From positions 1 to 32,000 of the forward strand of contig NJBF01000015.1 in NCBI GenBank assembly GCA_003144275.1: DNA of 32,000 nucleotides, written 5' to 3'. Origin of the DNA: Candidatus Heimdallarchaeota archaeon B3_Heim. GTDB taxonomy: Archaea; Asgardarchaeota; Heimdallarchaeia; Hodarchaeales; Hodarchaeaceae. The translations under genes were made by a program, and so were the position numbers. Each line of letters opens with the position of its first letter. Position 1 is the stretch's first letter. Shown piece by piece: positions 8,250 through 9,104 of this stretch. The notes beneath the pieces are model-generated. The model did no database searches and had not been told where the DNA came from. It saw only the letters and a list, made by a program, of their open reading frames with translations.

Positions 8250-8577
8250 AAATCATTATATTCATCTGGAAATGCCTTTCAAGTGTAAATCTATAGAAGA
8301 CCTCTTAAAGTTCATCTATCAAAATCTCCTGAAATAAAAGGATCAGTTTTGATACAATTAGAAAGTCAGTTGGAACTTCAAAGGTTGAAAGGGAAAAAAA
8401 ACAGGGAAACGCATTTGAGGATTCAACGCTCAATTATACTCTCTAGAACATTTAGTGATGGATTAATTACAAATGTAAATCTTTAAAAATGGCTTTCTAT
8501 CGAGGATACACTAGATTTGCATTCTAATACTGGAATTTCGAATCAAAAACATCATTGGAAAAAGGTGAAAAGAAAAA

Positions 8578-9006
8578 ATGGCTGTATTTGCTAAGGCTAG
8601 AATTGAAAAAATTATCAAAGCGAGTGGCGCGGAGCGAGTTAGCGCCAAGAGTATTGTACGTATGGACGAATTAGTCGCTGAATTTGGGAAAAGTACATCC
8701 AAAACTGCGATCGATTTTGCCAAAGCGGCAGGAAGAAAAACTGTACAAGGCGCGGATATTAAAGTTGCCGTATCCAAAATTGGGGTTCCAAAATATTCTC
8801 CAACTGGACCCAAATCGAAAGCATTTGCAAAAGCTCGTGTAGAACGAGTTATTCGAGATGCTGGAGCAGAAAGAGTTAGTGGAGATGCAGTGGATTATCT
8901 GAATAAACAATTAGAAGCCTATTGTTATACCCTAGCCAAGTCTGCGGTTGACATTGCTCGACATGCGAAAAGAAAAACAATAAAAGACACTGATATTATG
9001 CCATAG
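8578..9006 (+). CDS. Tandem (doublet) archaeal histone-fold protein
   Basis: Two HMf-like folds: FAKARIEKIIKASGAERVS...AGRKTVQGADIKVAV and FAKARVERVIRDAGAERVS...RHAKRKTIKDTDI, joined by VPKYSPTGPKSK; SD-like AGGTGA at 8563-8568. Confidence 0.9.
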   Translation: MAVFAKARIEKIIKASGAERVSAKSIVRMDELVAEFGKSTSKTAIDFAKAAGRKTVQGADIKVAVSKIGVPKYSPTGPKSKAFAKARVERVIRDAGAERVSGDAVDYLNKQLEAYCYTLAKSAVDIARHAKRKTIKDTDIMP

Positions 9007-9030: not shown

Positions 9031-9044
9031 TTTCTTCCTTTTTT
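9031..9044 (+). terminator. Oligo-T tract, putative terminator after the histone gene
   Basis: TTTCTTCCTTTTTT about 25 nt downstream of the stop; archaeal terminators are typically oligo-T. Confidence 0.4.
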
Positions 9045-9104
9045 ATACTCATTCTAATCTCCGTGCTAGCCAAACTAGCACAATGAAATTTTTTATATTG
9101 TTGT

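Follow-up and report, generated by a model that had tools for sequence, protein, structure and literature searches.

How the endless histone chains of archaea became the fixed octamer of eukaryotes is an open question, and the change required both obligate heterodimers and a dimer that ends the chain. A gene of the Hodarchaeales, the closest known archaeal relatives of eukaryotes, raises this question in a concrete form. The window analysed here (32,000 nucleotides, positions 1 to 32,000 of contig NJBF01000015.1 from Candidatus Heimdallarchaeota archaeon B3_Heim; contig C27 of a 3.95-Mb genome in 103 contigs) contains an open reading frame at 8578..9006 on the forward strand, closed by a TAG stop at 9004-9006, that encodes a 142-residue histone doublet: what can a protein do in a histone chain when its two fused folds differ at the very surfaces by which histone dimers are joined? 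A basic tandem histone doublet has already been reported from the Hodarchaeales, where it was called intriguing and uncharacterised and its function was said to be unknown (Hocher and Warnecke 2024, PMC10919886), and the protein described here almost certainly belongs to the same family, with which it shares fused folds, a high isoelectric point (pI), occurrence in the Hodarchaeales and absence from the Lokiarchaeia. This was the only publication found to join histone, Hodarchaeales and doublet, and neither it nor the remainder of the literature searched mentions the truncated helix 3, the first fold devoid of the interface histidine or the reversed conservation of the two folds. Elsewhere, Asgard archaea are credited with 'M. 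kandleri-type' doublets in a review of 2026 (PMC13088155), a survey of prokaryotic histones recognises only acidic doublets (PMC13260811) and a further study mentions doublets only for viral histones (PMC11390915). Thus, the family is known, whilst its lopsided build is new as far as the literature searched shows.

The Pfam family of archaeal histones, PF00808, matches the protein in two stretches (88.1 bits against a cut-off of 21.4), and a genome-wide search with this family also recovers both folds of the doublet; membership of DUF1931 was considered and rejected, as the E-value of 0.074 does not pass the cut-off. The protein is basic, with a pI of 9.96 and 29 Lys and Arg residues against 16 Asp and Glu residues. 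Residue numbering was set by the match to HMfB (PDB ID: 1a7w), in which residues 86-140 of the doublet correspond to HMfB 6-60, so that fold 2 is numbered HMfB+80; folds 1 and 2 align gap-free at an offset of 79 and hence fold 1 is HMfB+1, the corresponding relations for HHoB being HHoB+78 for fold 2 and HHoB-1 for fold 1. Both folds exhibit a shared N-terminal motif (FAKARIEKIIKASGAERVS and FAKARVERVIRDAGAERVS). In case of fold 1, the HMfB residues L46, H49, D59, L62 and R19 are represented by F47, A50, D60, V63 and R20, with the RKT motif at 53-55; in case of fold 2, position 46 is I126, H49 is H129, D59 is D139, R19 is R99, RKT lies at 132-134 and L62 is replaced by P142, after which the chain stops. 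Fold 2 hence has a residue at each of the four interface positions, with only that of L62 changed (to Pro), and residues 63-69 are missing. All of this agrees with an earlier sequence-only reading of the region, which had described two tandem folds with a shared motif and a 12-residue linker rich in Pro, Lys and Ser, fold 2 starting at 8821, a full helix 3 with Ala for H49 in fold 1, retention of H49 and D59 with Pro for L62 and loss of most of helix 3 in fold 2, and R19 and RKT intact in both: the sequence, the AlphaFold2 model and the HMfB numbering bear out each of these points. The linker itself shows neither helix nor strand at residues 69-84 in the model, has a mean predicted local distance difference test score (pLDDT) of 74 over residues 71-80 and contains six positions (P71, K72, S74, P75, T76 and K79) that are each at least 90% conserved across 29 aligned orthologs. 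Its S-P-T-G-P-K run may resemble both the minor-groove-binding SPKK motifs and the proline-directed phosphorylation sites of eukaryotic histone tails.

The short C-terminus of the doublet is genuine. A protein search returned about 35 full-length orthologs of 140-148 amino acids with 73-98% identity, and all 29 that were aligned end in ...KDTDIMP or a near variant; orthologs with the ending DIMV share the features of the doublet. The stop is found at the same codon in 16 genomes, as TAG, TAA or TGA, and the DNA beyond it is unrelated between lineages; contigs of three independent DNA runs show no substitution or indel between 8913 and 9019, and reading past the TAG adds only two codons before a TAA is reached. 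An assembly error, read-through and a hidden frameshift at the C-terminus were rejected on the basis of the three stop codons, the unrelated downstream DNA and the agreeing contigs, and the TAG, for which the sequence-only reading had raised an error of assembly as a way out, is real by the evidence of orthologs, stop positions and contigs alike. Over the whole gene, the proportion of nonsynonymous differences (pN) is 0.12 and that of synonymous differences (pS) 0.73 by the Nei-Gojobori method, and the doublet gene is therefore under purifying selection. An artefact or a decaying gene, in the sense of a mis-assembled or truncated copy with no selected function, is refuted by the same observations together with the uniform length of the 29 orthologs, and its probability can be regarded as negligible.

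The doublet is a real, conserved gene of one Hodarchaeales family. Of 24 Hodarchaeales genomes, 17 carry it at full length, each in a single copy; all five genomes of high quality are among these 17, which by their assigned labels all belong to this one family. It was not found in the two genomes of the second Hodarchaeales family, nor in 59 other Heimdallarchaeia. Among the genomes without a doublet, the absence from G006 is an assembly gap, its contig ending beside the locus; the contig of G021 ends inside the methyltransferase gene that follows the doublet elsewhere, and that of G012 offers about 200 nt upstream of this gene, a short stretch in which no doublet C-terminus is present. The doublet family makes up one 50% cluster among 1.84 billion cluster representatives, and close orthologs carry the source name 'Candidatus Hodarchaeales archaeon histone'. 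The single match in RNA libraries is a contig of 200 nt from the metatranscriptome of a sediment; it covers 8542-8741 and may stem from carried-over DNA.

The AlphaFold2 model of the doublet, built on 30 sequences, reached a pLDDT of 94 and a predicted template modelling score (pTM) of 0.88, and in it the two folds are predicted to pair within one chain as an intramolecular histone pseudo-dimer. Following loop 2, helix 3 comprises 11 residues in fold 1 (58-68) and one turn in fold 2 (137-139). The best Foldseek match of the whole model is HMk (PDB ID: 1f1e; template modelling score 0.79 over 141 columns), followed by single-chain H2B-H2A and the Melbournevirus histone doublets; superposition on HMk and single-chain H2B-H2A extends over about 141-160 columns. 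The closest solved relatives by sequence are the Hodarchaeal histones 9qv5/9qv6 for the second half (E-value about 6e-15) and HMk for the first half. A pseudo-heterodimer, as the sequence-only reading had proposed, fits the high pTM, the superposition on HMk and single-chain H2B-H2A and the identity of only 38% between the two folds. As to function, that reading had left a wide choice between a cap, an asymmetric oligomer and non-nucleosomal DNA binding, and its interpretation is thus supported in part. Since the folds are predicted to pair within one chain, the doublet would be a fixed heterodimer with two unlike ends. In the middle of its helix 2, fold 2 furthermore exhibits an invariant Cys-Tyr-Thr-Leu, at a site occupied by Gly in fold 1 and in the canonical singlets, and Cys116 is the only cysteine of the doublet; this region may act as a knob-into-hole feature that forces the pairing of fold 1 with fold 2.

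Propagation of a hypernucleosome needs a dimer with two working ends, and the published criteria comprise a dimer-dimer interface formed by L46/H49/D59/L62, Gly at position 16 and the stacking pairs K30-E61 and E34-R65 (PMC6136690). The interface set is complete in neither fold, as fold 1 has no His and fold 2 ends at P142; Gly16 is present and invariant in both (G17 and G96); the helix 3 stacking residues are absent, with Met at 61 and no residue 65 in fold 2 and with K62 and S66 in fold 1. Cryo-electron microscopy of HHoB has identified a minimal 'open' dimer-dimer interface of Y44, E47, I48, H51, R54, D61 and K68, which is joined by L64 and Q67 in the 'closed' state and by K63 in stacking. 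Of the seven open-state residues, five are present in fold 2, which is devoid of the closed-state and stacking residues beyond its C-terminus: Q67 is missing and L64 is replaced by the terminal Pro142. Judged by these residues, the doublet would offer at most one working end and would not be able to extend a chain on both sides. The contacts to DNA are present in fold 2 in full, where R10, R19, K53 and T54 of HMfB and all five contacts of HHoB (R9, R15, R21, K55 and K58) are invariant; fold 1 has four of the five, with R20, K54 and T55 present, K/A/T/S at the HMfB R10 position and Gln57 in place of HHoB K58. These retained contacts and the basic pI mark the doublet as a putative DNA-binding histone.

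These data accommodate a protein with two dead ends, which would bind about 30 bp as a single unit and bend or mark the DNA or serve as a roadblock, in the manner of the bacterial alpha3-truncated histone HBb, by which DNA is bent but no nucleosome-like chains are formed: the interface set is incomplete on both sides, the DNA-contact residues are kept, non-nucleosomal histones are typified by a truncated helix 3 (PMC11390915) and truncated C-termini have been scored as interface-negative (PMC6136690). Such a solitary architectural role would leave unexplained why His129, A130, K131, D137, T138, M141 and P142 are frozen whilst their counterparts in fold 1 drift, and helix 2 of fold 2 is of full length, unlike that of true alpha3 histones; we consider this role unlikely, albeit one that deserves to be taken seriously.

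Conservation, measured as per-position entropy and Nei-Gojobori pN/pS over the 29 aligned orthologs, is distributed very unequally over the two ends. The interface-equivalent positions of fold 1 vary, with 2.3 bits at position 46, 1.5 bits at 47 (F/L/A), 1.9 bits at 49, 1.65 bits at 50 (A/T/S/N, never His in 29 orthologs), 1.4 bits at 58, 1.75 bits at 59 and 1.6 bits at 63 (V/I/L/F), the residues at 46, 49, 58 and 59 being varied. In fold 2, I126, A127, R128, H129, A130, K131, D137, T138 and D139 are invariant, and I140, M141 and P142 are nearly so. Mean entropy is 0.31 bits for fold 2 vs 0.61 bits for fold 1, and residues 137-142, at the very end of the protein, show a mean entropy of 0.15 bits with a pN of 0.034 and a pS of 0.93. 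Comparison of the dimer-dimer faces gives a pN of 0.042 for fold 2 vs 0.18 for fold 1, with pS saturated everywhere (0.7-0.9); since synonymous sites are saturated, it is the protein rather than the DNA that is constrained. At the protein level, the truncated face of fold 2 is thus constrained about four times more strongly than the face of fold 1, which looks intact. The statement of the sequence-only reading that neither fold is complete hence stands for the two residue sets, whilst the two faces are not equally disabled. Due to this difference in constraint, the face of fold 2 is the more likely live surface: fold 2 would be the working end and fold 1 the inert end.

The same asymmetry bears on two arrangements in which doublets would meet only each other. 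In a head-to-tail polymer, the doublet would be an ordinary hypernucleosome former, fold 2 docking onto the next fold 1 with a single His129-Asp60 bond per junction; G16 and D59 are kept in both folds, fold 1 has hydrophobic residues at 46 and 62, and DNA binding is reported for HMk-type doublets (PMC13088155). Both partners should, however, be under constraint if such an interface worked, and the fold 1 side drifts; fold 2 moreover has none of the helix 3 stacking residues. These points make us doubt this polymer strongly. A closed pair, in which two doublets are joined via like ends (fold 2-fold 2 or fold 1-fold 1) to give a tetramer-equivalent on about 60 bp that does not grow, sits well with one conserved and one drifting end, as these fit a single self-interface, and a fold 2-fold 2 contact could provide two reciprocal His129-Asp139 pairs if the H49-D59 bond of HMfB is taken as a guide. 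In this arrangement, both faces would be devoid of helix 3 when joined via fold 2, and would have no His and a variable surface when joined via fold 1; we deem a closed pair improbable.

At most one end appears to be live, conservation favours that of fold 2 and fold 1 has a non-His residue at position 49: these three points make a one-sided cap, which docks via fold 2 and ends the chain at fold 1, the role that we favour, and we put it forward as a tentative proposal that still falls somewhat short of probable. The doublet would bind about 30 bp like any histone dimer; its fold 2 end would dock, maybe with a geometry resembling the open state, onto a dimer of the five or six canonical singlets of the genome. 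Fold 1, the inert end, would face outward, such that the hypernucleosome is ended or bounded. Fold 2 would be suited to this by keeping the residues that canonical Hodarchaeal histones use for the next dimer (Ile, His and Asp), along with a terminal Pro for L62, and by having lost the rest of helix 3, including the part that serves tight 'closed' packing and stacking between turns. Partners are available: five canonical singlets, each about 67 amino acids long, are encoded in the genome, and they have the complete His/Asp/Leu face as well as the open-state Tyr. An extension of this proposal, in which two doublets would cap a tetramer of canonical histones to give an octamer-equivalent particle of about 120 bp and thus an archaeal counterpart of H2A-H2B, appears rather unlikely to us.

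Several points weigh against a one-sided cap. Contact of the doublet with other histones is inferred, and a face without helix 3 may be unable to form any helix bundle; C-terminally truncated histones have indeed been scored negative for the dimer-dimer interface (PMC6136690). Part of the conservation of fold 2 is explained by DNA binding through loop 2 and by the universal Arg-Thr-Asp motif of the fold, and the live end could yet be fold 1, in which positions 46 and 62 remain hydrophobic. The single-contig, apparently closed Hodarchaeales genome G008 has neither a doublet nor a close ortholog of the methyltransferase, and of the six histones that a proteome paper lists for the cultured Hodarchaeales strain HC1 none is a doublet, HMpC being a 72-residue singlet: given these absences, any role of the doublet is dispensable in some lineages. 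A complex prediction for two copies of a canonical singlet with the doublet, run without controls, gave a score of 0.00 against a mark of 0.32, which speaks neither for nor against binding.

For the capping role, the nearest precedent is provided by the capstones Msp_0383 and Msm_1260 of the Methanobacteriales, whose job is the one proposed for the doublet: a non-His residue at position 49 stops extension of the oligomer, the marks of a capstone being an acidic or hydrophobic residue at this position and an unstable dimer-dimer interface (PMC7776873). At position 49, fold 1 of the doublet has Ala here and A/T/S/N in orthologs, and fold 2 has His. The capstones are single-fold proteins with one or both ends dead depending on the dimer partner, whereas in the doublet a single chain fixes the asymmetry, and what has altered the second end is truncation rather than substitution. 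The cap would also be functionally like H2A-H2B, a fixed heterodimer in which H2B makes the helix bundle with the next dimer and H2A, devoid of that interface, blocks endless extension (PMC6136690); the cap would thus take the part that H2A-H2B has beside the H3-H4 tetramer. This parallel is one of function and not of homology: with 19-22% identity there is no specific relationship in sequence, the doublet has no docking domain or extra C-terminal helix, and the order of the folds may be reversed.

Turning to other doublets, HMk resembles the protein in holding two folds in one chain as a pseudo-dimer and is its best structural match, but is only 28% identical, and HMk-type doublets are classed as acidic (PMC13260811) against the pI of 9.96 found here; HMk-like P0123 has a full helix 3 in both folds and no His49 in either. 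The haloarchaeal HpyA-type acidic doublets (cluster 3, PMC13260811) share the double fold and a similar length (median 143 amino acids), but their median pI is 4.7 and, in Halobacteria, their partner is a miniature histone that is itself acidic (PMC13260811), whereas the Hodarchaeal doublet is basic, has its origin among Hodarchaeal-type histones and is truncated in its second fold. The alpha3-truncated, face-to-face histones (HBb/Bd0055; PMC11390915) have a helix 3 of 3-4 residues, much like the single turn of fold 2, which ends three residues past the Arg-x-Thr-x4-Asp motif. In spite of this, helix 2 of the alpha3-truncated histones is also shortened by 4-5 residues, whereas that of fold 2 has 28 residues, the same as in fold 1. 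Because helix 2 is of full length and fold 2 is 53-57% identical to the nucleosomal singlets of the same genome (43-50% for fold 1), fold 2 resembles the alpha3-truncated histones by convergence and not by membership.

In a tree of single folds over 70 columns, both folds fall within the Hodarchaeal-type histones, fold 1 having the longer stem by a factor of about three; 20 of its 32 inner branches are unresolved, and internal duplication and fusion of two paralogs are not told apart by it. No truncated second fold was present in any other doublet retrieved (P0040, P0117, P0118, P0120, P0123, P0144 and several more) in a search of the 1.84 billion cluster representatives. Of these, P0040, a singleton doublet of 150 residues from a 3-kb contig of Logan run SRR14699982, is 48% identical, has a similar linker and keeps His/Asp/Leu and a full helix 3 on both folds; the symmetric build of P0040 may be the ancestral one for the family. 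Since other doublets keep a full helix 3 and P0040 keeps full faces, the truncation and the loss of His look derived and specific to the family. In a further sequence, P0041 (93 residues, 537-bp contig), the C-terminal 45 or so residues correspond to the end of fold 2 and the N-terminus is short-chain dehydrogenase-like (PF13561/PF00106); a chimera in the short contig or an error of gene calling is more probable here than a real fusion.

The features of the locus are collected in Table 1. Judging by the T-rich tract behind its stop, the doublet gene is probably transcribed alone. Directly downstream, in all Hodarchaeales genomes with enough flank, lies a methyltransferase gene with Eco57I, N6_Mtase and TaqI_C domains, which in the window encodes 596 residues including a Cys-rich insert. 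In more distant genomes this methyltransferase is only 35-48% identical, against 70-87% for the flanking genes there, and no nuclease gene adjoins it. The gene has the look of an orphan methyltransferase that evolves fast whilst its locus stays fixed. In the orthologous regions L026-L035, several genomes have an extra 1.8-3.8 kb between a P-type ATPase gene and the doublet that is absent from the window, and the doublet-methyltransferase junction stays tight. The methyltransferase is a candidate partner for yet another reading, in which the doublet would be a histone-fold adaptor, comparable to the NF-Y, NC2, TAF or CENP-T/W/S/X pairs, and would bring a non-histone protein to DNA by means of its basic linker and the frozen surface of fold 2: a conserved surface without an obvious canonical interface, a disordered but conserved linker and the constant proximity of the methyltransferase would all suit such an adaptor. 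The region is collinear across genomes, which makes adjacency weak evidence, T-tracts separate the two genes and the best family match is the archaeal histone and not a transcription-factor fold pair; we hold out little expectation for an adaptor. An operon or functional link between the two genes was not established, for the same reasons of collinearity and intervening T-tracts.

Apart from the doublet and the five canonical singlets that would be its partners as a one-sided cap, the genome encodes one Lys-tailed histone, one divergent histone and one large histone-fold protein of 376 residues. The Lys-tailed histone has Asn at the H49 position, as does the tailed LC_3 histone HA, for which H49N has been noted (PMC6136690). 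The 376-residue protein combines an N-terminal histone fold with a middle domain and a Lys/Arg-rich C-terminus, and may be the histone-Roadblock/LC7 fusion mentioned for the Hodarchaeales in PMC10919886.

Table 1. Coordinates of the doublet gene, its parts and further features; positions are those of the window unless another contig of the genome is named.
Feature	Position	Strand	Basis
Doublet coding sequence including stop	8578..9006	+	Open reading frame and translation; PF00808 in two stretches; 29 orthologs
Fold 1, residues 1-69: helix 1 (6-15), helix 2 (23-50), full helix 3 (58-68)	8578..8784	+	AlphaFold2 secondary structure
Codon GCG, Ala50 at the HMfB His49 position of fold 1	8725..8727	+	Sequence, translation
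Linker, residues 70-81 (VPKYSPTGPKSK): 12 residues, basic, rich in Pro/Lys/Ser	8785..8820	+	Sequence, AlphaFold2
Fold 2, residues 82-142: helix 1 (85-94), full-length helix 2 (102-129), loop 2, one helical turn	8821..9003	+	AlphaFold2
Codon of Cys116, only Cys of the doublet	8923-8925	+
Codon CAT, His129 at the HMfB His49 position of fold 2, invariant	8962..8964	+	Sequence, orthologs
Codons D139-I140-M141-P142, helix 3 remnant; P142 at the HMfB Leu62 position	8992..9003	+	Sequence, translation
TAG stop, true C-terminus	9004..9006	+	Stop at same codon in 16 genomes; contigs of runs X1, X2 and X4 without difference at the site
GGTGA, Shine-Dalgarno-like putative ribosome-binding site	8564..8568	+	Sequence, 9 nt before ATG
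T-rich tract 3' of the stop, likely archaeal oligo-T terminator	9031..9045	+	Sequence; T-runs downstream in many orthologous loci
Methyltransferase, 596 residues	9105-10895	+	Eco57I, N6_Mtase and TaqI_C domains
Histone with Lys-rich N-terminal tail, Asn at the HMfB His49 position	C36:2487-2777	+
Histone-fold protein, 376 residues	C61:26681-27808	+

With two unlike ends, one frozen and one drifting, the bare statement that a fused histone exists in the Hodarchaeales becomes a concrete and testable hypothesis. If the doublet does act as a cap, it would be the first archaeal histone to terminate chains in a hard-wired, one-sided manner and a functional parallel to H2A-H2B; if doublets and canonical histones were to form the octamer-equivalent particle, the step from endless hypernucleosomes to defined nucleosomes would already have been tried before eukaryotes. 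Should the capping role fail, the doublet would still be a natural case of a nucleosomal fold that has converged on the alpha3-truncated form.

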